A stretch of 64,000 nt of DNA from the IMG/VR virus record IMGVR_UViG_3300002597_000001, positions 44,779 to 108,778 of that record. One strand, given 5' to 3'. How positions within the stretch are numbered: the first letter of the stretch is position 1; every line of letters begins with the position of its first letter. The notes under the pieces are model-generated. The model saw only the letters and a program-made list of their open reading frames with translations. It was not told where the DNA came from and searched no databases. Made by a program: the position numbers and the translations under genes. Below, in pieces: positions 5,555-48,156 of this stretch. The DNA comes from a virus (Duplodnaviria > Caudoviricetes).

Positions 5555-7409
5555 ATGGAAGTTAATATCCGGTTGAATAAGAATTTTACAACGCAGTACA
5601 ACAAACTACAGGCTGAGTTCGGTACAGAGATAGCGGCGATTAATGGGTTTGATGACGGGCAGCTTTCCTATACGGATTTCATAGATAATTTTGCGGCTAA
5701 GGATGTTGTTGCAGATGCGAGCATTGACGGGAATTCCAATGTATCACATAAGGACATCGTCACGCTGGAACGAGAAATGTCCAAGCCTCACGAAAAGCTG
5801 ATTGCGTTCAGTAAAATCTATCAGGAGATCCAGGACAAATACGGATTCAAAGCCGCTAATGAGTGGTTGCGACTGGAGTGGATCGGCGCTCTGTATCTGC
5901 ATGATGCCAGTACCAGCACCCTCAAGAGCTATTGTTTTGCCTATGATTTGAAGGATCTTGCTGAGAAGGGAATGTACTTCGAAGAAGGTCGGAACGCAAA
6001 ACCGGCACAGCACTTGATCACATTTGTGGATTTTGTGAAAGAATTTGTCAGCTTCACATCCAACCGTACAAGCGGAGCCGTGGGACTCCCGAATCTCATT
6101 CCCTATATGTTCTACTTCTGGAAGAAGGATATTACAGAAGGATATATGGGACTGACGGAAGAGATGGGGGAGCGGTACGCAAAAAGCAATATCCAGAGAT
6201 TCATCTATGCAGTCAATCAAAGCCACTGCCGCGATGGTTCGCAATCGGCCTTTACGAATACTTCGATTTTCGACCATCCTTATTTTGAAGCGCTGTTCGG
6301 CGGGGCAGTATTTCCAGACGGATCATTCATGATCGACTACGAGGAGGAGATCATTGAATTCCAAAAATGGTATCTGGAAGAAATGGCGGCAATCCATTCG
6401 GAAAACATGTTCACGTTCCCTGTTAATTCTATCAGTCTTCTCCGGCAGAACGGGAAATTTGTAGATGAGGAATTTGCCAAATATGCTGTGCGACACAATA
6501 TGGAATGGTCTGATTCAAATCTCTTTGTGGACAGTTCTGTTAACAGTTTGAGTAACTGCTGTAGACTCAAGTCCAATATCCAAGACCTCGGCTATTTCAA
6601 CAGTATTGGCGGAACGGCGCTCAAGGTCGGTTCTGTAAAGGTGAATACTGTGAATCTCGCAAGAATCGCGCTGGATTGCACAACTGAAGAGGAATATCTG
6701 GACGAGCTTTATCACAGGACGACTGTCTGCCTCCGCGCTCTGGATGTGGTCAGGAGCATCATCCGCAGTAATGTCAGGAAGGGGCTCCTCCCGAATTTCT
6801 CCAAGGGCCTCATTGATTTCGAGCACCTTTATAATACAGTGGGCTTCCTGGGTATCTATGAGACAATGAAGAAATTCGGATATACCAAGGTCGATCCGTT
6901 TGGAAATACATACTACACGCCGCTGGCGTCTACTTTCGGTCAGAAGATTTTCCAGACGATGCGGAAAGCAGCAGACGATTTTATCGCAGCAGATCCCACG
7001 GTGGATTACCAAATCAACACCGAACAGATCCCAGGCGAATCAGCGGCTGCGAAGCTGATGAAAAAGGACAAGTTCTTCTATCCTGACGCCAACATCTACG
7101 ATTTGCCGTTGTATGGAAACCAGTTCATTCCGCTGGGGATCCAGACCACGTTACAGGAACGTGTGCGGATCGCCGCCGAGTTCGACGGCTACTGCAACGG
7201 AGGCTCGATCCTCCATGCCAATATCGACGCGCCGTTTGACAGTTTTGAGAAGGCGTGGAAGATGGTAAACTACATCGCTGATGCCGGTGTAACGTATTTC
7301 GCATTCAATACCAAAATTCAGTCGTGCGAAGACAACCATGCGTTCTACGGAGATACTTGCCCAGTGTGCGGGAAACCTGTAGATGCGGAGTTCACGAGGA
7401 TCGTAGGGT
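5555..7409 (+). CDS. nrdD: anaerobic ribonucleotide reductase NrdD, exon 1 (spliced product 650 aa, no ATP cone)
   Basis: SNCCRL, NLARIA, EQIPGES, CxxH/CPVC Zn site; ends at TRIVG. Confidence 0.93.
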
Positions 7410-8534
7410 AAAGTGGTGTACTGCCCAATGCTTTGGCAACAAGGTAACGCGATCTAAAACAAGAAACCTCGAATATGCGGGGACCCCCTTAGAGACTTCA
7501 ATACTAACCCACAGGGAAACCGAGTGGCGGCGGAACTAATCACTCCGGGACAGTAATAAGTTGAAGTATTGGGAAATCCGCAGGCATAGCTGAAATGCGA
7601 TGGCCCCAACGACTACCAAGAGGCGTCCGATCACGGACGAAGGTATAGTCTATTCCGATTAGAAATAAGGAGAAATACATATGACTAATAGAGAAGATTT
7701 CACAGGACAGATATTTGGCAAAAGAAAAGTAATTCGTAATTATTGTGTTGAAGAAGATTGGATTAATATTGGAAAGCCGATACCGAATGATATCCGCAAG
7801 TACAGATTGTCAGAATGCCTGAACTGCGGCGCAAAAGTTCCAGTGCTTATGAAAAACCTCTTTGAGCGCCCTCCAAAAAGGTGTTGTTTTTGCTCCAATA
7901 TTCGGAATACCAGTACGACAATTCAGTCTTCCACAAATACTTGGACATTGTATGACGATTATGCGGCTGTCAATGTTACTTATAAAGATGGCGTCGTGAC
8001 CGGATACGTCAGTAAAGAAGATTATGAGGATGTTTCAAATCGTATGTGGCGGGTAAGCAAAAAGAAGAACAAATATTATTTGCTCAGTGGCTCCAAATAC
8101 AAAGACGATGTCATCTATCTGCACAGATTTATCCTACGAGATAAGGAAATCCTGTCTGGGCACGAAGTTGATCACATTGATGGGAATTCGCTGAATAACC
8201 GCCGAGAAAATCTTCGGGTTGTAACGAGGCTTGAGAACATACAAAATGTGTCTCAACGAATCGATAACCAGATTGGAATCAGAGGTATTGCGCCGGATGG
8301 GCGTGGTAAATACACGGTGGATTTTTCTCATAATAATAAACGGTATTACTTTAAGCCATGGGACACATTGGCCGAAGCCGTCTGCTGCCGAGGTGTTTTG
8401 GAAGATTACTTCGGTCTTGAAATGATTAGGCGAAATCCAAAAGCGCAGGCAGTTGACGTTCTGCCTCTATGTCAGGTAAGTGAAATCAAACAATATGTAT
8501 TATCCAAAATATCGTGAAAGCGACGGTATTAAAG
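7410..8534 (+). mobile_element. group I intron in nrdD carrying an HNH endonuclease
   Basis: Exon ends in U7409 with P1 GGGU/GCCC (U.G pair); core AATCCGCAG, CAACGACTA, AAGGTATAGTCT; omega-G 8534; splicing restores RIVG-F-YTRVSTW. Confidence 0.92.
7681..8517 (+). CDS. intron-encoded HNH homing endonuclease (AP2-like C-terminus)
   Basis: YLHRFI..EVDHIDGNSLNNRRENLR..T..EN; AAGGAG RBS; located 3' of the intron core. Confidence 0.88.
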   Translation: MTNREDFTGQIFGKRKVIRNYCVEEDWINIGKPIPNDIRKYRLSECLNCGAKVPVLMKNLFERPPKRCCFCSNIRNTSTTIQSSTNTWTLYDDYAAVNVTYKDGVVTGYVSKEDYEDVSNRMWRVSKKKNKYYLLSGSKYKDDVIYLHRFILRDKEILSGHEVDHIDGNSLNNRRENLRVVTRLENIQNVSQRIDNQIGIRGIAPDGRGKYTVDFSHNNKRYYFKPWDTLAEAVCCRGVLEDYFGLEMIRRNPKAQAVDVLPLCQVSEIKQYVLSKIS

Positions 8535-14005: not shown

Positions 14006-15949
14006 ATGCCTACGGATAAGGCGAAATTGAGAGAGTTGATCTTGAGGGCCAAGGAGAAGCTTGGAGACCAGAATGCTGAGATTATTGCCGAGTCCTACGG
14101 CGTCGCTCAGTGGAATCCAAATAAACTGAATGGGTTGTGCCCATTCCATAATGAATCACATCCCAGTTTTAGTTATAACAGGAAAGACTATTCCGCTCAT
14201 TGTTTCAGCTGTGGAGAGTCTACGGATGTTATTCGCGCCCTGATGGATGGTCAAAACCTGAGTTTCGTTGACGCGGCTAAAAAGCTATTTGAGATGGCTG
14301 AGATGGATGTGCTGTGGGACAAGGTTCATGTGGATAGGAAATATAGGTACCCACACGAGGAGCAGGAACCAGCAGAGGATGTCATTGATTATTTGGGTTG
14401 GCGAAAGATCTCCGAAGATACAATACGAAAATGTGGGATTCAGTCCGATGGCAAAGGCAATATCGCGTTTCCTTATCGTGATGAAAATAACCAACTTCTC
14501 ACCATGAAATACCGTCCTGCACGGAAGGTTAATAAGGATAACGGAGAACAAAAAAGCTGGGTGCAGAAAGACACAGACACAACTCCGATCCTATTCAATA
14601 TGAATAGGTGCAATCCAGATTATCCTCTCGTGATCTGCGAAGGGGAAATTGATTGCCTATCCGTGTATGAAGCAGGGTGGAAAAATGTTGTAAGTATCCC
14701 CTTTGGGGCGCAATCCATGACGTTTATAGACCGTTGTTATGATTGGCTGGATATGTACAAAGAGATTATTCTCGCCGGAGACATGGATGAAGCTGGTCAG
14801 AAATTCAACAAAGAAGCGACGACCAGACTTGGAGCATGGCGTTGTAAGACCATGGAAATCCCAGATAAGTATATGGGTCACATCGCGCAGCTCGACAGAG
14901 ATATCAAGGATATCAATGAGGTGCTTTTCTATTTTGGGAAAGATGCCGTCATGGATATGATCCATAATGCTCGTGAGACACCTATTGCGTCAGTTGTAGA
15001 CATCATGGATGTCAAACCAGTGGATTTGCAAGAGCTTGATGGAGTTACTACTGGCATCAAACCGTTAGATAAGATGCTTGGCAAACTTTATTATGGGACC
15101 GTCACTTTGGTCTCTGGAAAGGCCGCATCCGGTAAATCTAGTTTAGTCAGCACAATTCTCTGTAATGCTATGGACGCAGGAATAAACTCGTGGATTTATT
15201 CTGGAGAATTGAATGAACAAACAAACCGTAACTGGATTGATTACATATTTGCTGGCCCGAGAAATGTGAGTCAAAGCAACGCTCCTGACGGCTCTGATTA
15301 TTATCAGATTAACCCAGGTGTGTCAAATAAAATAAGCAAAGCCTATAGGGGTCGATGCTTTATCTATAAAGATGGTCAAACATCTGACATTGATTCGCTG
15401 CTCAAATCTGCGGAGGATGTGGTTCGGAGATATGATTGTAAGGTTCTTGTATTAGACAATCTTATGACAATCATGGATTCTAGCGATGAGGAACTGGAAT
15501 CTCAGAAAAACATCATGGTCAAAACCGTAGCTTTTGCTACAAAATATAACGTGGCGATTCTATTGGTGTGCCATCTCCGTAAAGTCGCAAAGGGACAACA
15601 GATTACGCTCGATGACATTAGCGGAACTGCGAAATTGGGCAATCTGTGCCACCGAAATATCACGTTGGCAAGGATCACGGATGAAGAAAAAAGCGGCGAA
15701 GCTGAATATTCTCATACACCCAAGGAGTTACTTAAATATGATGTTCAGATTTCGTGTTCAAAAGACCGCATGAGAGGTAAGGTGGGCTCTATAGGGGTCT
15801 GGTACGATACTTGGAGCCGGAGGTTCTATAGCAGCCCAGAAGAATATGATCGAGTATATTCGTGGGATAAGAAGAAATATGATGAACCACTGGATTGGCC
15901 ACACGCCGACACCAATGATGTGTTGGGGCCAGAGCAAGGGGGTGCTTGA
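14006..15949 (+). CDS. primase-helicase (CHC2 Zn finger + Toprim + SF4 helicase)
   Basis: CPFH...CFSC, ICEGEIDCLS, GDMDEAG, Walker A GKAASGKS, LDNL, HLRK. Confidence 0.92.
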   Translation: MPTDKAKLRELILRAKEKLGDQNAEIIAESYGVAQWNPNKLNGLCPFHNESHPSFSYNRKDYSAHCFSCGESTDVIRALMDGQNLSFVDAAKKLFEMAEMDVLWDKVHVDRKYRYPHEEQEPAEDVIDYLGWRKISEDTIRKCGIQSDGKGNIAFPYRDENNQLLTMKYRPARKVNKDNGEQKSWVQKDTDTTPILFNMNRCNPDYPLVICEGEIDCLSVYEAGWKNVVSIPFGAQSMTFIDRCYDWLDMYKEIILAGDMDEAGQKFNKEATTRLGAWRCKTMEIPDKYMGHIAQLDRDIKDINEVLFYFGKDAVMDMIHNARETPIASVVDIMDVKPVDLQELDGVTTGIKPLDKMLGKLYYGTVTLVSGKAASGKSSLVSTILCNAMDAGINSWIYSGELNEQTNRNWIDYIFAGPRNVSQSNAPDGSDYYQINPGVSNKISKAYRGRCFIYKDGQTSDIDSLLKSAEDVVRRYDCKVLVLDNLMTIMDSSDEELESQKNIMVKTVAFATKYNVAILLVCHLRKVAKGQQITLDDISGTAKLGNLCHRNITLARITDEEKSGEAEYSHTPKELLKYDVQISCSKDRMRGKVGSIGVWYDTWSRRFYSSPEEYDRVYSWDKKKYDEPLDWPHADTNDVLGPEQGGA

Positions 15950-18900
15950 TGCCTAATATCGTACAACTTCACAACCATACAGACATCAGTCTTCTCGACT
16001 CTGCTACTAAAACTTCCGACTACATAGCAAAGTGTCTCGAATATGGACAGACCGCTCTCGCCATCACTAATCATGGATACCTCAAGAACTGGGTCGAGAA
16101 CAAAATCCTCTGTGACAAAGCTGGAATCAAGTACATCCACGGTGTGGAAACGTACATCACGAAGACATTGCTTCAGCCTGTGGACGGCGAGATGAAGAAA
16201 GTCCGTGACAATATGCACTGTATTCTTCTTGCCAAGAACTATGACGGAGTATTGGAACTCAATCAGCTTATCAGCACAGCTTGCGATGATGATCACTTTT
16301 ATTTCGCGCCGAGAATCAGCGGGCAGGAATTCATCAATCTCTCTGATAACATAATCGCTTTGTCAGCCTGTCTGGCTGGCCCTCTCAACAAGCTGGACCC
16401 AGATGACGAAATGTTCCTGCCTATCCTAAAGCGCATGGACTATTTGGAGATCCAGCCTCACAACTGCCAGTCTCAGGCAGATTACAATATATGGCTTGCG
16501 AGTCTCGCTCAGAAGTATCACAAGCCCCTAGTTGCCACAACAGATTCCCACAGCTCTGATTACTATAAGAATGAGTGCCGGGACATTCTGATGCTATATA
16601 AAGGTCAGCACTATGAGTCCGAAGACGAGTTGGATCTCGTATTCAAAAGCTATGACCAGATGGTAGAAGCCTTCCGTGTGCAAGATGCACTCCCAGAGAA
16701 ACTGTGGATGGAGGCTATTGAGAACACCAATGATATTGCGGATTCAGTGGAGGACTTCGGACTGGACTTCTCTATGAAATACCCCATCTTATACGGGAGT
16801 CCGGAAGCAGATGAGGAGGCGTATCGCAAAAACGTCTGGTCCGGCCTTGATGATAAGCTGAGAAAGGGCATCATCCCCAAAGAAGAGGAAGCCCAGTATA
16901 GAGAGGACGCCGCTTACGAACTGGAGGTGTTCTCAAAAATAGGAATGGCAGGCTTCATGCAGGCCGAATCTGAAATCATCTCCTGGTGTAAGGAACAGGG
17001 AATGCCCATTGGTCCGTCCCGTGGATCTGTGGCCGGAAGCCGCTGTGCCTATCTGACAGACATCATCGATCTGGACCCCGTAAGGTGGAACACAAACTTC
17101 GCTCGTTTTGCGAATTCCGACCGTATCGTGGCTGGTGATATCGATGTGGATTGTCGTGAAAAAGACCGCCCTAAAATCTTTCAACACATCATTGAAAAAT
17201 TCGGGCGCGACAAAGTGGCGCGAGTCAGTTCATTTGGGACCCTTCAAGACAAGGGGACAATTAAGTTGATTGTCGGAGCGTTGGGAAAGCGTTGGAAAAT
17301 AGAACACGAGGCTGAAGATGAGGGCAAATATACGCTCAAGTATGCAGAGTCTATAATAAAAGAATACGAGGCAGACCCTGATAGTTGCCGCACAGCGCAC
17401 CCGGATATATTCTATTACTTCGACGGTTTAGTCGGTACATATATATCACAGTCATTCCACCCGGCAGGCGTTATCATCTCACCAATCACGTTACCAGATC
17501 ACTATGGGACATTCATCAAAGATGGAGAAGTGGTTCTGAATCTGGATATGCTCTGGAGCCACGAGATCGAATTGGTGAAATTCGACATGCTTGTGCTCCG
17601 AAACATCGATATCATCTTCGATACTTGTAAATTGGCGGGGATCCCATACCCAAAGAGCCATGAGGTCAACTGGGATGACGAAAAGGTCTGGGAGAACATG
17701 ATTCAAAGCCCGGTTGGGGTATTCCAGATGGAGGGAGATTACGCATTCCAGTGCCTGAAGAAGTATAAGCCACACTCCATCTATGATATGTCCCTTGTAA
17801 CCGCGAGTATCAGACCGTCAGGTGCGTCATACAGGGATCAGGTCATGGAGCACAAGATGAACAAGAACCCAACGCCGCTTATTGATGAGATTTTTAAGGA
17901 CAGCCTTGGATACTGCGTCTATCAGGAGCAGGTTATTGCGTTCCTTCAACAGGCTTGTGGGTTCCCAGGTTCCAAAGCCGACACAGTGCGTCGTGCAATT
18001 GCAGATAAAGATCCTGCTAAATTGGAGTCCATGATGCAGGATGTGATTGATGGATACTGTGAGCTGTCGGACAAACCTAGAGCAGAAGCTGAGGAAGAGG
18101 TCAAGGATTTCGTACAAGTCCTGCGTGATGCATCTGGATACTCATTTGGTTATAACCATAGCGTCGGCTATAGCATGATTGGCTATTTGTGTACGATGCT
18201 TCGGACATATTATCCATATGAATTCATCGTGGCATTGCTCAATAATGCAGCCAATGAATCAGATGTGGCAAATGCCAAATCGCTTGCCTCTCAGCTCCAT
18301 ATCAAAATCCTTCCACCGAAGTACGGCGTCTCCTCAGACACATATGTGTTCAACAAGGACACCAAAGAAATTGCAAAAGGGGCCGCAGACATCAAATATG
18401 TCGGCAAAAAGGTTGCGCTTGCCTTATATAAGATGGCCCACGATGGAAAGCAACGGGCATTCGTGGATGTGATTCTGGATTCCACAAATGGCATCCGCGA
18501 TATGAACAAACGTCGCATGGACGCTCTTATTTCAGTCGGCTATTTCTCAGACTTTGGTAATATTTCCGAGCTATCAAGAATCTACAGCATGGTGGAGGAA
18601 TTCAAATTTGGCGAGACCAAGTCCTACAAATGCGACAAAGTTGGCGAACGCCTAAAGTTCATCGAAAAGTACGCCAGCAACCTAAAAAAGGACGGCACCC
18701 CCGGAAGCTCATACAAGTTTGAGTCCAAAGATGCCGTCATAGCATTCCTGCGAGAGGCTGAGCAAGTGATTCTTTCGCTCGGAATCCCTGATGTTTCCTT
18801 CAAAGTGAAGGCCGAGAATCAGCAGGAGTATCTCGGATATATAGATCTGGTCACTGGCCGCGAGGAAGACCGCCGTAAACTCTACATCATGGACTACTAT

Positions 18901-19116
18901 GAGATTATGAACAAGTGGGGCGGCAAGGGCGTGTGGAAGGTGCGCATTAAAACCAGATCGATTGGCTCCGGCAAGGAAGCCTCACTAAGTTTGTCTCCAG
19001 TATTGGTCCAGAGAAATCCTATAGAGAAGGGGAGTGTCATTGAGGTCAAAGAAGAATGGCTCTCGCTCGACAAGGGTCAGTACTGGGTTCTATATAAATA
19101 CAAAGTTATAGAGTAG
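15946..19116 (+). CDS. dnaE: DNA polymerase III alpha subunit (family C)
   Basis: PHP motifs HNHT, TNHG, TTDSH; RGSVAGS, GDIDVD, HPAG, KFD.L, YQEQ, YSFGYNH. Confidence 0.95.
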   Translation: MMPNIVQLHNHTDISLLDSATKTSDYIAKCLEYGQTALAITNHGYLKNWVENKILCDKAGIKYIHGVETYITKTLLQPVDGEMKKVRDNMHCILLAKNYDGVLELNQLISTACDDDHFYFAPRISGQEFINLSDNIIALSACLAGPLNKLDPDDEMFLPILKRMDYLEIQPHNCQSQADYNIWLASLAQKYHKPLVATTDSHSSDYYKNECRDILMLYKGQHYESEDELDLVFKSYDQMVEAFRVQDALPEKLWMEAIENTNDIADSVEDFGLDFSMKYPILYGSPEADEEAYRKNVWSGLDDKLRKGIIPKEEEAQYREDAAYELEVFSKIGMAGFMQAESEIISWCKEQGMPIGPSRGSVAGSRCAYLTDIIDLDPVRWNTNFARFANSDRIVAGDIDVDCREKDRPKIFQHIIEKFGRDKVARVSSFGTLQDKGTIKLIVGALGKRWKIEHEAEDEGKYTLKYAESIIKEYEADPDSCRTAHPDIFYYFDGLVGTYISQSFHPAGVIISPITLPDHYGTFIKDGEVVLNLDMLWSHEIELVKFDMLVLRNIDIIFDTCKLAGIPYPKSHEVNWDDEKVWENMIQSPVGVFQMEGDYAFQCLKKYKPHSIYDMSLVTASIRPSGASYRDQVMEHKMNKNPTPLIDEIFKDSLGYCVYQEQVIAFLQQACGFPGSKADTVRRAIADKDPAKLESMMQDVIDGYCELSDKPRAEAEEEVKDFVQVLRDASGYSFGYNHSVGYSMIGYLCTMLRTYYPYEFIVALLNNAANESDVANAKSLASQLHIKILPPKYGVSSDTYVFNKDTKEIAKGAADIKYVGKKVALALYKMAHDGKQRAFVDVILDSTNGIRDMNKRRMDALISVGYFSDFGNISELSRIYSMVEEFKFGETKSYKCDKVGERLKFIEKYASNLKKDGTPGSSYKFESKDAVIAFLREAEQVILSLGIPDVSFKVKAENQQEYLGYIDLVTGREEDRRKLYIMDYYEIMNKWGGKGVWKVRIKTRSIGSGKEASLSLSPVLVQRNPIEKGSVIEVKEEWLSLDKGQYWVLYKYKVIE

Positions 19117-19424: not shown

Positions 19425-19663
19425 TAGCATTTGAAGATTATTGTGTGGGGTGCCCACGAGAGATTGGGTGTTTAGGCCCATCCTGCCCGAACAAGAATGT
19501 CCCAGTTATTTACTGTGATAAATGTGGCTGTTATGCCGATTATAGATACGAGGGCAGTGACTACTGTGAAGACTGTTTGAATAATGTCTTACAGGAAGAG
19601 TTCAGTAATTTACTTATATCAGAGAAACTGGAAGCCATCGGCGGCGACTGGGATTACATATAG
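19421..19663 (+). CDS. Cys-rich hypothetical protein
   Basis: CVGC..C....C, CDKC, CEDC. Confidence 0.6.
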   Translation: MIAFEDYCVGCPREIGCLGPSCPNKNVPVIYCDKCGCYADYRYEGSDYCEDCLNNVLQEEFSNLLISEKLEAIGGDWDYI

Positions 19664-19673
19664 GAGGAATAAA

Positions 19674-20315
19674 ATGGCGAAGATTGAGAACGTAGAAGTA
19701 AACGGACTGGCGTCATCTATCTACAGAAGCGGATATCCTATGATGGATAGAGCGCCAACCAAAGACGAGTTTGATGAGGCCGTAGATCAGATTCAGCAGT
19801 GCATCGAGAGCGGCGATTGTGACAACCCACACATCAAAAGAGCCATTAAGCTGGCCACGGCGAAGGGCGGCGGACACGATCAGTTCTTGACAGGCATCAC
19901 GGTGAACTTTGACATGACCTTCAGTAATAAAGCTTGGGTTGAAGCAGAACGATACACATTTTTGAACTTCATTTCCAGCTTTAGCACAATGCATAGAATT
20001 GCAAAAATGAATATTGCTGACTGTTGTAATAGCTATGCATCGTATAATGCCATTGAGGAGGCAGAATACTGGCAGCACAAATACGAACAGATTGCGAATG
20101 AGCCATCAGCAACGCATGAATTAAAACTAGAAGCATACCGCATGCTCCTGTACAACTTGCCGGCGGCTTTCGAAGTTACTGCTGGCATGACAACGAATTA
20201 TCGTTGTTTGAAAAACATCTATGCACAGCGGCGCGACCACAGATTGCCCGACTGGCATGTGTTCTGCGACTGGGTAGAGACCCTCCCTTTGTCGCAGCTA
20301 ATTACGGGAAAATAA
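19674..20315 (+). CDS. ThyX/Thy1-like phage protein
   Basis: GHDQFL, W.EAERY, STMH, TNYRCLKNIY.QR..HRL.DW; the canonical ThyX RHR motif is degenerate. Confidence 0.55.
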   Translation: MAKIENVEVNGLASSIYRSGYPMMDRAPTKDEFDEAVDQIQQCIESGDCDNPHIKRAIKLATAKGGGHDQFLTGITVNFDMTFSNKAWVEAERYTFLNFISSFSTMHRIAKMNIADCCNSYASYNAIEEAEYWQHKYEQIANEPSATHELKLEAYRMLLYNLPAAFEVTAGMTTNYRCLKNIYAQRRDHRLPDWHVFCDWVETLPLSQLITGK

Positions 20316-20359
20316 ATCTCATTCAACCTATTGACAAATCTAGAATTATGTGCTATGAT
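20316..20359 (+). promoter_or_regulatory. sigma-A-type promoter of the tRNA/ncRNA operon
   Basis: TTGACA(20331)-17 bp-TATGAT(20354) with TGn; upstream motif is 18/20 identical to 1942-1961. Confidence 0.85.
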
Positions 20360-20368
20360 AATGGCGCA

Positions 20369-20453
20369 GGCGGTGAGTTGTTCTTTTTCGGTAGGAAATC
20401 TCATGTGCCCTAGATGAAGAATGGTGCGGGGCGGCGCACAATAATATCCGCCA
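20369..20453 (+). ncRNA. unidentified structured RNA A (three-way junction)
   Basis: GGCGG/CCGCC closing stem with UGAG/CUCA and UGUGC/GCACA arms; first element after the promoter. Confidence 0.45.
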
Positions 20454-20457
20454 ACAC

Positions 20458-20533
20458 GCTGGCATAGCTCAGTTAGTAGAGCAATTCCCCTGTAAGGAAT
20501 GGGTCGTCGGGGCAGAGCCGACTGCCAGCTCCA
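20458..20533 (+). tRNA. tRNA-Thr(UGU), non-canonical C33 and T-loop
   Basis: GCUGGCA/UGCCAGC acceptor, GCUC/GAGC D stem, AUUCC-CCUGUAA-GGAAU, GUCGG-GGCAGAG-CCGAC, encoded CCA. Confidence 0.8.
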
Positions 20534-20824: not shown

Positions 20825-20901
20825 AGCGCAGTCGCCAAATTGGTTAAGGCATCGGATTTTGGTTCCGATTATTGTGGGTTCGAATCCTACCTGCGCTGCC
20901 A
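20825..20901 (+). tRNA. tRNA-Gln(UUG)
   Basis: AGCGCAG/CUGCGCU acceptor, UCGGA-UUUUGGU-UCCGA, UUCGAAU T loop, CCA. Confidence 0.92.
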
Positions 20902-20997
20902 GAGAGGTAGGGAATCTGCCGATATGCGCAGAAGCGCTATGCGATATTGGCGGAGAAAATGGTGATGCATGAATACCTATGAAGCCACCTCTCACCA
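20902..20997 (+). ncRNA. unidentified CCA-terminated RNA E
   Basis: Starts 1 nt after the tRNA-Gln CCA; 7-bp GAGAGGU/ACCUCUC + A + CCA; internal 11-bp helix. Confidence 0.6.
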
Positions 20998-21428
20998 TGG
21001 CCCAACACACCTATGCGTAGCACAGTAAGTGGCCCATGTTGGGTAATTTGAAAGCGGGGAAATCCATCCGTTTGTAAAAACCAGTCGCTGGAGATGGACA
21101 CCTTTAGACTGGGTTTAGTTCGAGGTTGTTGTGTTAGGGGTGTAGTGCGCGGACGGTTCTGTCCAAAACCAACTGCGCCGCCCCGAATTTTGGCCTTGTG
21201 GTCTGCCTCCGTCGTGTGTACGGCGAAAAGACCGCCCCGGATCGCTACCGGGAAATAGCGGCAGCGAGCTAGATAGAGGCTTGGTATCTCGCTGGGGTGT
21301 AAAGAAGCCAGAAGCCGGAGAGACGGGACGGTATGGTGAGGTGATATCCTATTCCTCACACAAAATCACCCTATTCTCAGCTAGGGGTGTGGCAGTCTGG
21401 CGTAGCTGTCGAGAGAAAGTACGCCCCA
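20998..21428 (+). ncRNA. densely structured, pseudoknotted non-coding region (one large or several RNAs)
   Basis: Successive hairpins and pseudoknots, no sense ORF, located between tRNAs. Confidence 0.5.
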
Positions 21429-21431
21429 TAT

Positions 21432-21519
21432 GCTGACGTATCCTAATTGGCAAGGAGCCGGTCTTGAAAATCGGTGATACCGAAAGGTACTGTGGGTTCG
21501 AGTCCTACCGTCAGCGCCA
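21432..21519 (+). tRNA. tRNA-Ser(UGA)
   Basis: GCUGACG/CGUCAGC, CCGGU-CUUGAAA-AUCGG, long variable arm UACC-GAAA-GGUA, G73, CCA. Confidence 0.9.
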
Positions 21520-21628: not shown

Positions 21629-21704
21629 CCGGGCATAGCGCAGCTGGTAGCGCTCCTGATTTGGGTTCAGGAGGTCGGGCGTTCGAGTCGCCCTGCTCGG
21701 ACCA
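21629..21704 (+). tRNA. tRNA-Pro(UGG)
   Basis: CCGGGCA/UGCUCGG, CCUGA-UUUGGGU-UCAGG, UUCGAGU, ACCA. Confidence 0.92.
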
Positions 21705-21812
21705 GCGGAGCGGCTACTCCACACAGTCGTACTCAGCGGATAGCATACGATGCCGAGATCGCGATGGTAAATCGTATGGTTCTGATTGTGGGATATGGGC
21801 CGCTCCGCCCCA
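21705..21812 (+). ncRNA. unidentified CCA-terminated rod-like RNA L
   Basis: Starts 1 nt after the tRNA-Pro CCA; perfect 10-bp terminal stem + C + CCA; inner 8-bp helix. Confidence 0.62.
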
Positions 21813-22090: not shown

Positions 22091-22129
22091 TACATAAACC
22101 GAAGTCCTTTCCTTCAAGAAGGAGGTATT

Positions 22130-23347
22130 ATGTCGAAGCGAAAGGATTGTAAGGGTCGGAACCTAAGAACAGGGGAGGGCCAAAGAGCAAACGGTCTGTA
22201 TTACTATCAGGCCACAGACAAATATGGCAACCGGACAACGCTGACCAGTTGGAGGCTTGTCCCGACAGATCCATTACCAAAGGGTAAGCGAGACTGTATA
22301 CCGCTTAGAGAACAGGAAGAAGAATTGACCAAACAGATAAAGTCAAAGCTAGATCTTTCTGTCCGGTGTACTGTGATGGAGGCCGCTCTGAAGTATAAAG
22401 AATCCAGAATTGGCCTGAAACCACAGTCTATGATTGGTATCAATACGTTTAATAAGGTGCTTGGAAAGTATAAGCTTTCTCACATGCAGATAAACGACGT
22501 AGAGGTGAAAGACGTAAAGTGGTTTTGTCGAGCTCTATACAAAGACAATTACTCTGTTACGACAATCATGAATTACAAAGGGCGTCTGTCAAGCGTGTTT
22601 GTCTTCGCGGGTGAAGAACTGCATTTACTCACTAAGAATCCAACAGAGTTCAAGCTGAACAGCGTCATAAAAGAGACGCCAAATAAGAGGGGTTCGCTGT
22701 CCGAACAAGACAAGGAAGAGTTCATCCGTTTCATCAAGAGCGATAATGTATCGCGCAAACATTTTGATGAAATTAATCTGTTGCTTGGAACCGGGCTTCG
22801 GATCTCAGAGTTTGTAGGACTCACAGAAGACAATGTGGATTTCGAGAACCACTGCATTGTGATTGACCATCAGCTCCAAAATTTAACACCGAACCGAGAG
22901 TGGCTCACACCAAAGTCGGAAGCTGGAAACCGAGTGGTGTTTATCAGCGATGATGTTGAGGCGTCTGCGAGGCGACTGATTGAGGCAGCTGGCCCAAAAC
23001 GATCTGGGTTTACGTGTGGAAACACATCAAAGTTTTTCATCCTTGACAGAAATGGAAACCCAAGGAAAGATATTGGTGTTAGGGATATGCTAAGGTCAAT
23101 CGTCAATCGATACCATCGAAAAACAGGAAAAGAGCTTCCCCATATTATTCCACACATGCTCCGACACACATATTGCACAGATCAGGCCCAGTCTGGAATG
23201 GACATGATGGCATTGCAATATATGATGGGGCATACGGACATGTCTACGACAAGTCGTTACCTGCACACTCAACAAAATCACGCGGCGGCAGAGGCAGCAA
23301 GATTGTATCGAAAGCATGCCAACGCGGCCTCAAAAGACGCTGTCTGA
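22130..23347 (+). CDS. int: tyrosine integrase, Tn916-like N-terminal arm-binding domain
   Basis: RKD.KGR.L.TGE.QR; catalytic TGLRISE, K, HMLRHT, MGH, Y. Confidence 0.93.
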   Translation: MSKRKDCKGRNLRTGEGQRANGLYYYQATDKYGNRTTLTSWRLVPTDPLPKGKRDCIPLREQEEELTKQIKSKLDLSVRCTVMEAALKYKESRIGLKPQSMIGINTFNKVLGKYKLSHMQINDVEVKDVKWFCRALYKDNYSVTTIMNYKGRLSSVFVFAGEELHLLTKNPTEFKLNSVIKETPNKRGSLSEQDKEEFIRFIKSDNVSRKHFDEINLLLGTGLRISEFVGLTEDNVDFENHCIVIDHQLQNLTPNREWLTPKSEAGNRVVFISDDVEASARRLIEAAGPKRSGFTCGNTSKFFILDRNGNPRKDIGVRDMLRSIVNRYHRKTGKELPHIIPHMLRHTYCTDQAQSGMDMMALQYMMGHTDMSTTSRYLHTQQNHAAAEAARLYRKHANAASKDAV

Positions 23348-47592: not shown

Positions 47593-48156
47593 TGAAATCA
47601 CCTCAGTGTAATAATAACATATGTATAAAGAAATGACAAGTGATCTCAACAATAATTTACATTTTATTAATAACATATGTAGAGCCATAGGACCCACTTT
47701 AATCGTATTAGAGGTTGTCGTTCACATAGGGTCGCTAGTCCTATGCAGTTCTCTTATGAACTTCTTACACTTTCATGTAAGCACAGACTATATCTTATCC
47801 CTCGGCATTATCCGTTAGGGCCTATCCACTTCGGACACCAATAGCTTGTGCCCTACTTCCCTCAAGAGGAATAGTCGTTGAACCTTGCCTTTCAGCCTTG
47901 GCTGCTGATTGCCCATTATATAGCGTTTAGGATTTAACCATGCGCCATCTATTCAATTTTTTCTGCTTTCGCAACATTCACGAACACACCATTTGAGGCG
48001 TCACGTTGTAGTTTGAATAGCTTTAGGGGTTTCCAGCAATTCAAATAGTATTGGGCAGGTGTAACCAAACCTGCCGCTACATACACGTTTCCGTATATGC
48101 TGACTTGCTGATTGCCTTACTCATGACTAAAGTCACGAGTGTGCGGCAATCGGTCA

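Follow-up and report, generated by a model that had tools for sequence, protein, structure and literature searches.

A candidate structured non-coding RNA framed by tRNA genes in a temperate ruminant gut phage

The tRNA cluster of phage T4 gives rise to two RNAs that are not tRNAs, the species 1 and species 2 RNAs, which are about 120-140 nt long, have tRNA-like acceptor ends, and are co-transcribed with the tRNAs and excised by tRNA-processing enzymes. Large structured RNAs such as ROOL and GOLLD also lie near phage tRNA genes and rank with the most poorly understood RNAs of bacteria and phages; cage-like structures are known for them, but their function is not. ROOL (RF03087), whose function is unknown, is a large RNA with many helices and with pseudoknots; it was first found in cow rumen data and occurs in phages and prophages, often near tRNAs with which it is possibly co-transcribed (PMC5737381; bioRxiv 10.1101/2024.12.08.627333). 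GOLLD (RF01998) is a phage and prophage RNA, likewise of unknown function, that is located near tRNA islands and sometimes has tRNAs embedded within it (10.1101/2024.12.08.627333). The candidate RNA described here resembles ROOL in its ruminant habitat, its phage host and its position in a tRNA island, and it shares the phage tRNA-island setting with GOLLD. The original prediction had recognized this ROOL- or GOLLD-like context, and the setting is indeed the tRNA island of a phage, in this case one of the ruminant gut.

The window, that is, the whole 64,000-nt stretch of DNA that was analysed, is taken from an IMG/VR virus record of 108,778 bp that has direct terminal repeats, and it corresponds to bases 44779-108778 of that record. 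Sampled words of the RNA stretch occur in gut metagenome runs of sheep and cattle that belong to 9 studies, and these occurrences together with the genome setting identify the source as a temperate phage of the ruminant gut. The phage encodes a GH25 lysin with choline-binding repeats, which points to a Gram-positive host, and a protein atlas look-up with the integrase gave Bacillota or Actinomycetota as a loose indication only. A gene for an HU protein lies near the candidate RNA, alongside the gene for the DnaE-type polymerase. The surrounding features are as follows.

15946-19116: gene for a DnaE-type polymerase
19584-20315, plus strand: PHROG 6721 gene
20331-20359, plus strand: predicted sigma-70-type promoter upstream of the tRNA operon (TTGACA, 17 nt, TG-TATGAT; 11/12)
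20458-20530, plus strand: tRNA-Thr (Rfam, 48.9 bits; missed by ARAGORN)
20825-20901, plus strand: tRNA-Gln(UUG), upstream neighbour of the RNA (ARAGORN and Rfam)
20902-20997, plus strand: insert of 96 nt ending in CCA, with a discriminator A and a terminal stem of 7 bp but no cloverleaf
20998-21365, plus strand: conserved core of the candidate RNA (368 nt; GC 53.8% versus 46.9% for the window)
21366-21431, plus strand: lineage-specific 3' extension of 66 nt with a hairpin at 21384-21427, absent from the homologue
21432-21519, plus strand: tRNA-Ser(UGA), downstream neighbour of the RNA (ARAGORN and Rfam)
21629-21704, plus strand: tRNA-Pro (ARAGORN and Rfam)
22130-23347, plus strand: Tn916-type tyrosine integrase

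The tRNA operon, whose genes all lie on the plus strand, has the order Thr-Gln-[gap]-Ser-Pro; from tRNA-Gln to tRNA-Ser the gap measures 530 nt (20902-21431). The nearest phage matches of the tRNA at 20458-20530 are annotated as tRNA-Thr. The interval from the promoter at 20331-59 to position 22111 showed no terminator-like site on the plus strand. Position 34 is U in each of the four window tRNAs. The protein encoded by the PHROG 6721 gene has more than 2,000 homologues with invariant H, D and R motifs (GHDQFLTG, RxHRLPDW); it belongs to no Pfam family and is fused to PF21448 in some homologues. A group I intron (RF00028) occurs elsewhere in the window at 47764-48144 on the minus strand, with 77 bits versus a gathering score of 50. 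Distant DnaE relatives (loci L003-L047, in phages of 140-150 kb) carry just one tRNA-Gln(UUG), some 8 kb upstream of dnaE, and no such RNA was found beside this lone, differently located tRNA-Gln.

One divergent homologue of the RNA was found, in phage contig L048 (IMGVR_UViG_3300011005_000139), which was reached through the upstream protein. The core at 20998-21365 aligns to L048 positions 7506-7876, with 240 of 367 columns identical (65%). The homologous stretch in L048 is 371 nt long, starts 1 nt past the CCA of tRNA-Gln, and directly meets the first base of tRNA-Pro at its 3' end, so that element and tRNAs abut there on both sides. Logan contigs from runs X2 and X4, which belong to two further studies, have a tRNA 3' end that abuts position 20995. 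From these junctions and those of L048, the conserved unit was set at 20998-21365. The 96-nt insert is present in run X1 and absent from L048 and from the X2 and X4 contigs, and by this comparison it is a separate unit outside the conserved core. Judged in the same way, the 3' extension, which as the window's own 3' arrangement is carried by contigs from X1, X4 and X6, is lineage-specific, as are the insert and tRNA-Ser with its spacer.

The search for further relatives covered several collections. In IMG/VR, exact and gapped patterns of five conserved blocks matched the L048 contig alone, and an invariant-block 19-mer gave only chance matches in JGI metagenomes (5) and in GTDB species genomes (2). 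Searches of GenBank phages with blastn returned tRNAs or no match, nhmmer and blastn detected no homologue in the loci of DnaE relatives (46) or of upstream-gene relatives (80), and a covariance model of the 3' domain recovered just the two known copies from 47 related phage records.

The two phages can also be compared outside the RNA. An element of about 108 nt that lies 3' of tRNA-Pro (window 21705-21812; L048 7953-8055) is conserved between both, and tRNA-Pro together with this element has 79% identity. The sequence CGCCCCATA occurs at 21422-30 and again at 21806-14 (repeat family D14). In L048 the PHROG 6721 gene and the tRNA module are separated by a gene for an HNH/NUMOD4 homing-type endonuclease (6572-7114, plus strand), which is absent from the window. 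The integration module that adjoins the common tRNA/RNA module has been swapped (window 22130-23347, plus strand; L048 8285-9913, minus strand), the recombinase being a Tn916-type tyrosine integrase in the window and a large serine recombinase in L048.

A protein-coding reading of the stretch is ruled out. The 140-aa minus-strand open reading frame of the window is split in L048, all six frames have stops in both sequences, the indels in the alignment measure 3, 1, 1, 2 and 1 nt, the mismatches between the core and L048 have no codon (three-base) periodicity, and neither Pfam nor PHROG gave a match. A mini-ORF behind a GGAG in the invariant block was also rejected, as its AUG is not kept in L048. 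The two phages have diverged widely, and the average conservation of the RNA region, as estimated from them, is close to the neutral level, with 65% identity versus 62% at the third codon positions of the flanking gene. This identity is distributed as a mosaic, in which perfect runs of 22 nt (21312-33), 13 nt (21195-207), 11 nt (21230-40) and 11 nt (21016-26) are separated by segments that can barely be aligned. An identical run of 22 columns has P = 0.004 by permutation. The conserved blocks have no further copies within the window, and the GC content of the core is 54-55% versus 45-47% in the two genomes.

A curated structure model was made from the two sequences, with one-column misalignments corrected by hand, and eleven nested helices and one pseudoknot were defined. 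The helices and blocks of the predicted RNA, together with the pairings listed by the original prediction, are given below; changes are those between the window and L048.

21001-43, plus strand: hairpin P1, CCCAACA (21001-07) with UGUUGGG (21037-43), with an 11-nt invariant apical block at 21016-26
21052-73, plus strand: hairpin P2, with one compensatory and one single change
21078-21116, plus strand: hairpin P3 of 9 bp, whose loop contains UGGACA (21095-100)
21137-84, plus strand: P4, GGGGUG (21137-42) with CGCCCC (21179-84), stacked on P5 (GCGCGG/CUGCGC), with UGUCCA at 21160-65 in the apical loop and with GCGC/GCGC and GGAC/GUCC nested in the domain
21192-21207, plus strand: mini-hairpin P6 with a UUGU loop, overlapping the 13-nt invariant block at 21195-207
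21209-21223, plus strand: variable hairpin P7, with a hairpin of unrelated sequence at the same place in L048
21230-40, plus strand: 11-nt invariant block, serving either as stem 1 of the H-type pseudoknot or as the 5' strand of P8, a long-range helix
21236-61: H-type pseudoknot of the original prediction (CCCGG-AUCGCUA-CCGGG-AAA-UAGCGG)
21242-61, plus strand: hairpin P9 (UCGCUA/UAGCGG), with one compensatory and one single change
21262-68 and 21288-94, plus strand: hairpin P10 (CAGCGAG/CUCGCUG), with two compensatory changes
21278-82 to 21305-09, plus strand: candidate pseudoknot from the P10 loop, with two compensatory changes
21312-33, plus strand: 22-nt purine-rich invariant block, containing the P8 3' strand (21324-32)
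21336-59, plus strand: hairpin P11 (GUGAGG/CCUCAC) with a conserved 12-nt loop and one compensatory change
21294-301 and 21420-27: GGGGUGUA with UACGCCCC, closing the 135-nt 3' domain of the original prediction
21307-12 and 21396-401: GCCAGA with UCUGGC, within that domain
21378-83 and 21403-08: CAGCUA with UAGCUG, crossing GCCAGA/UCUGGC
21137, 21294 and 21384: GGGGUGU, of which two of the three copies belong to repeat family D13

When the sequence was read directly, all of the pairings that had been proposed earlier were found, and those upstream of the 135-nt domain, namely P1, the GGGGUG/CGCCCC domain, the H-type pseudoknot and P10, are kept in the L048 homologue with compensatory changes. 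For P1, six of seven pairs are unchanged in L048 and one is broken. P3 has four of its nine pairs changed on both sides, and P4 and P5 have two compensatory changes each. A candidate loop-loop pairing of 21095-100 with 21160-65 carries two compensatory changes and one single change; the local alternative to it, GGAC/GUCC, is kept too. P11 was predicted independently in both single-sequence folds, and P8 is a predicted long-range helix that closes the 3' domain and is an alternative to the H-type pseudoknot. That pseudoknot can form in both sequences, but its stem 1 is invariant and competes with P8. In run X6, both partners of the terminal G-U pair of P2 are deleted. The best-supported parts of the model are P3, P4, P5, P10, the P10-loop pseudoknot and the possible loop-loop contact between 21095-100 and 21160-65.

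The 135-nt domain fared differently. The 3' extension at 21366-21431 provides its 3' partners, and since these are absent from L048, in which the RNA ends at tRNA-Pro, the domain lies outside the conserved RNA; moreover, the substitution T21382C in close variants breaks the CAGCUA/UAGCUG helix. The triple occurrence of GGGGUGU, which had been taken to allow alternative pairings, is not conserved in L048, the sole divergent homologue. The broader claim of a folded, non-coding RNA with at least one candidate pseudoknot agrees with the present analysis. A perfect 12-nt inverted repeat (20427-20438 versus 21174-21185) links the 3' strands of P4 and P5 to a conserved hairpin that lies upstream of tRNA-Thr; it is kept in L048 only in part. 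Self-kissing through palindromic loops was considered and rejected, as the GAUAUC of the P11 loop is lost in L048 and in the variants.

Support for the fold differs between tests that use one sequence and tests that use both. Single-sequence folding gave z-scores of -2.2 for 20902-21431, -1.5 for the core and -1.3 for the L048 homologue. RNAalifold, applied to the two sequences, predicted 68 pairs, 11 of them changed on both sides, and scored z = -3.3 against column shuffles that keep the conservation pattern, with none of 200 shuffles as good. Helices of at least 6 bp that form in both sequences and have at least one compensatory change numbered 7, compared with 2.1 +/- 1.5 in shuffled alignments (0/150); the count of helices with at least two compensatory changes had P = 0.15 and is not significant alone. 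Each of the 31 pairs named for the 3' domain forms in both sequences, and six are changed on both sides; this pair count was reached by 3 of 500 shuffles, and slid controls were 34-48% paired. Among the 69 pairs of the curated model, 46 are unchanged, 15 are changed on both sides, six still pair despite a change on one side, and two are broken. When the minimum free energy fold of one sequence was moved onto the other, the signal was weak (P = 0.18 for double changes; P = 0.16 and 0.006 for broken pairs), as expected for fold prediction at 370 nt. Taken together, conserved helices that carry compensatory changes are in excess when the two sequences are compared, but folding of the single sequences is weak. 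Since these are the only two divergent sequences, no single helix of the predicted fold is statistically secure.

Close variants in four metagenome runs contribute 15 core substitutions, of which ten fall at positions called unpaired. A21079G retains a G-U pair in P3, C21194U gives a U-G pair in P6 and is found in L048 and in all four metagenome variants, and C21233U retains a U-G pair with G21330. The pair-breaking variants are U21246G, which leaves a mismatch in P9, and G21142A in P4, which occurs in one run only. These variants are compatible with the structure model and add little power to it.

No described family was matched by the RNA. With Rfam 15 at E<=10, the 1.8-kb surroundings contain tRNAs only, and the 446-nt stretch searched alone with permissive filters has no match; the L048 homologue has two chance-level matches to unrelated families. 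ARAGORN found neither a tRNA nor a tmRNA in 20902-21431, and the Rfam models for tRNA, tmRNA and RNase P RNA were not matched. Conserved-region motifs of RNase P were not recognized on visual inspection. Inspection by eye also led to rejection of an RNase P-like P4 and of a T-box-like motif, because the topology was wrong or conserved residues were absent. The original prediction had suggested ROOL, GOLLD or small ribozymes without assigning the RNA to any of them; none of these memberships is borne out by the Rfam 15 search of the window stretch at E<=10, and we likewise find no family.

The comparison with the individual systems leads in the same direction. The ROOL covariance model is unmatched at E<=10 in both the window and L048, and the candidate RNA is about 365 nt long, whereas ROOL averages 581 nt. 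Its size and fold are also unlike those of ROOL, with a 368-nt core that is predicted to contain about 11 helices, one clear three-way junction and one to three candidate pseudoknots. The candidate RNA is known from two divergent sequences. The GOLLD model, including its conserved 3' domain, is not matched by the candidate RNA either, and GOLLD is more than twice as long. Because the ROOL and GOLLD models fail and the RNA is much smaller, it is a candidate for a new family that would share the niche of ROOL, GOLLD and the T4 RNAs and not for membership in ROOL or GOLLD. As to the species 1 and 2 RNAs of T4, the position of the candidate between tRNAs would fit co-transcription and release by RNase P and 3' trimming, but its core lacks a CCA end and is three times longer.

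One rival reading, which we consider unlikely, takes the stretch for a cis-acting spacer within the tRNA operon, whose folded segments would serve only to prevent neighbouring pre-tRNAs from misfolding or to time the action of RNase P and RNase E; the excised piece would be degraded and have no function in trans. Such a role would suit the tRNAs that abut the element on both sides in both phages, the modest stability of the fold, and the presence of hairpins and CCA-like ends in other spacers of the operon. However, the Thr-Gln spacer of the same operon is wholly unconserved between the two phages, and a largely unpaired 22-nt invariant block accompanied by three others is more constraint than a passive spacer would call for. 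The long invariant unpaired blocks probably make specific tertiary or protein contacts, and they argue against a passive spacer. It is less likely still that the stretch consists of decayed tRNA genes or is a recombination scar in the tRNA array, alignable because the phages are close and with hairpins that are the old arms. Its identity is no higher than that at third codon positions, the apical block of P1 is loosely similar to a tRNA D-loop and GUUCGAG to a T-loop (repeat families D1 and D5), and there is a loose alignment between 21366-21410 and the 5' half of tRNA-Pro. The surroundings are fluid as well, with the 96-nt insert and the tRNA-Ser block in one lineage only. Against decay, no tRNA model matches the core of either sequence at E<=10, 15 double compensatory changes stand against two broken pairs, and invariant blocks of this length go far beyond what neutral drift permits.

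The functional molecule might also be a minus-strand RNA or a DNA element, such as an arm site for the recombinase or an origin, and we hold this to be very unlikely. In the column-shuffle test the minus strand scored z = -4.8, as good as or better than the plus strand, and P1 pairs better on it, reaching 9 bp through G-U pairs; the stretch also lies between the DnaE and HU genes and the integrase. Nevertheless, the functional strand is likely the plus strand, given the five G-U pairs per sequence inside the curated helices, the variants tolerated on that strand only (A21079G, C21194U and C21233U), and the plus-strand tRNAs that touch both ends. On the minus strand the ten helix G-U pairs would become A-C mismatches, and with the L048 tRNAs 0-1 nt away, there is no space for the promoter and terminator of a separate unit. 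As for a DNA element, the window has no second copy of the conserved blocks, and the position beside the integration module is kept even though the recombinases of the two phages are unrelated (tyrosine versus serine type), which makes a shared att arm unlikely. The theta ribozymes, which are HDV-like and adjoin the tRNAs of gut phages, offer a precedent for yet another role, in which one or more small self-cleaving ribozymes would aid tRNA release. The start of the stretch directly after a CCA end and its many candidate pseudoknots are in keeping with this idea, which we nonetheless regard as highly improbable. No Rfam ribozyme family (hammerhead, twister, twister-sister, pistol, hatchet, HDV-like or hairpin) was matched at E<=10 in the window or L048, and an HDV-like fold at the 5' end failed a hand check, as the P1 analogue would have 3-4 bp if cleavage occurred right after the CCA and no conserved C is present at the position of the catalytic cytosine.

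The reading that we favour, with a probability of roughly 60%, is that the stretch specifies a stable, structured, plus-strand non-coding RNA that shares a transcript with the tRNAs and is freed when these are processed. The element itself is real, conserved and non-coding, and it is probably structured. It is possible to outline how such an RNA might be made. The core at 20998-21365, together with the lineage-specific 3' hairpin up to 21431, would encode a plus-strand RNA of about 365-430 nt, which would arise within the tRNA operon transcript that starts from the 20331-59 promoter and be excised by the host enzymes that mature the flanking tRNAs. Its 3' end would be formed by the RNase P cut at the 5' end of the next tRNA, which is tRNA-Ser in the window, and its 5' end by trimming of the preceding tRNA or tRNA-like CCA end. 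This is the most likely mechanism of release, as read from the geometry only. The released RNA may fold into about eleven helices, with a three-way junction closed by the long-range helix, at least one candidate pseudoknot and the candidate loop-loop contact. For this RNA we infer transcription, processing, stability and any function in trans.

A further suggestion, which is tentative and draws on the analogy with ROOL and GOLLD, is that the RNA belongs to a third, smaller family of ornate RNAs from phage tRNA islands, one that has its own fold and that binds tRNAs or assembles into a higher-order particle as ROOL and GOLLD do. The invariant unpaired blocks and the loop-loop contact might then enable tRNA binding or assembly during infection or lysogeny. 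If that suggestion is true, rumen phages would carry a whole repertoire of such RNAs. A much smaller and unrelated RNA framed by tRNAs would, if true, also be an easier system in which to address the questions that ROOL and GOLLD pose. Such an RNA would raise the questions of why RNAs reside in phage tRNA operons, whether tRNA processing is a general means of releasing them, and whether their targets are tRNAs, ribosomes or host defences.
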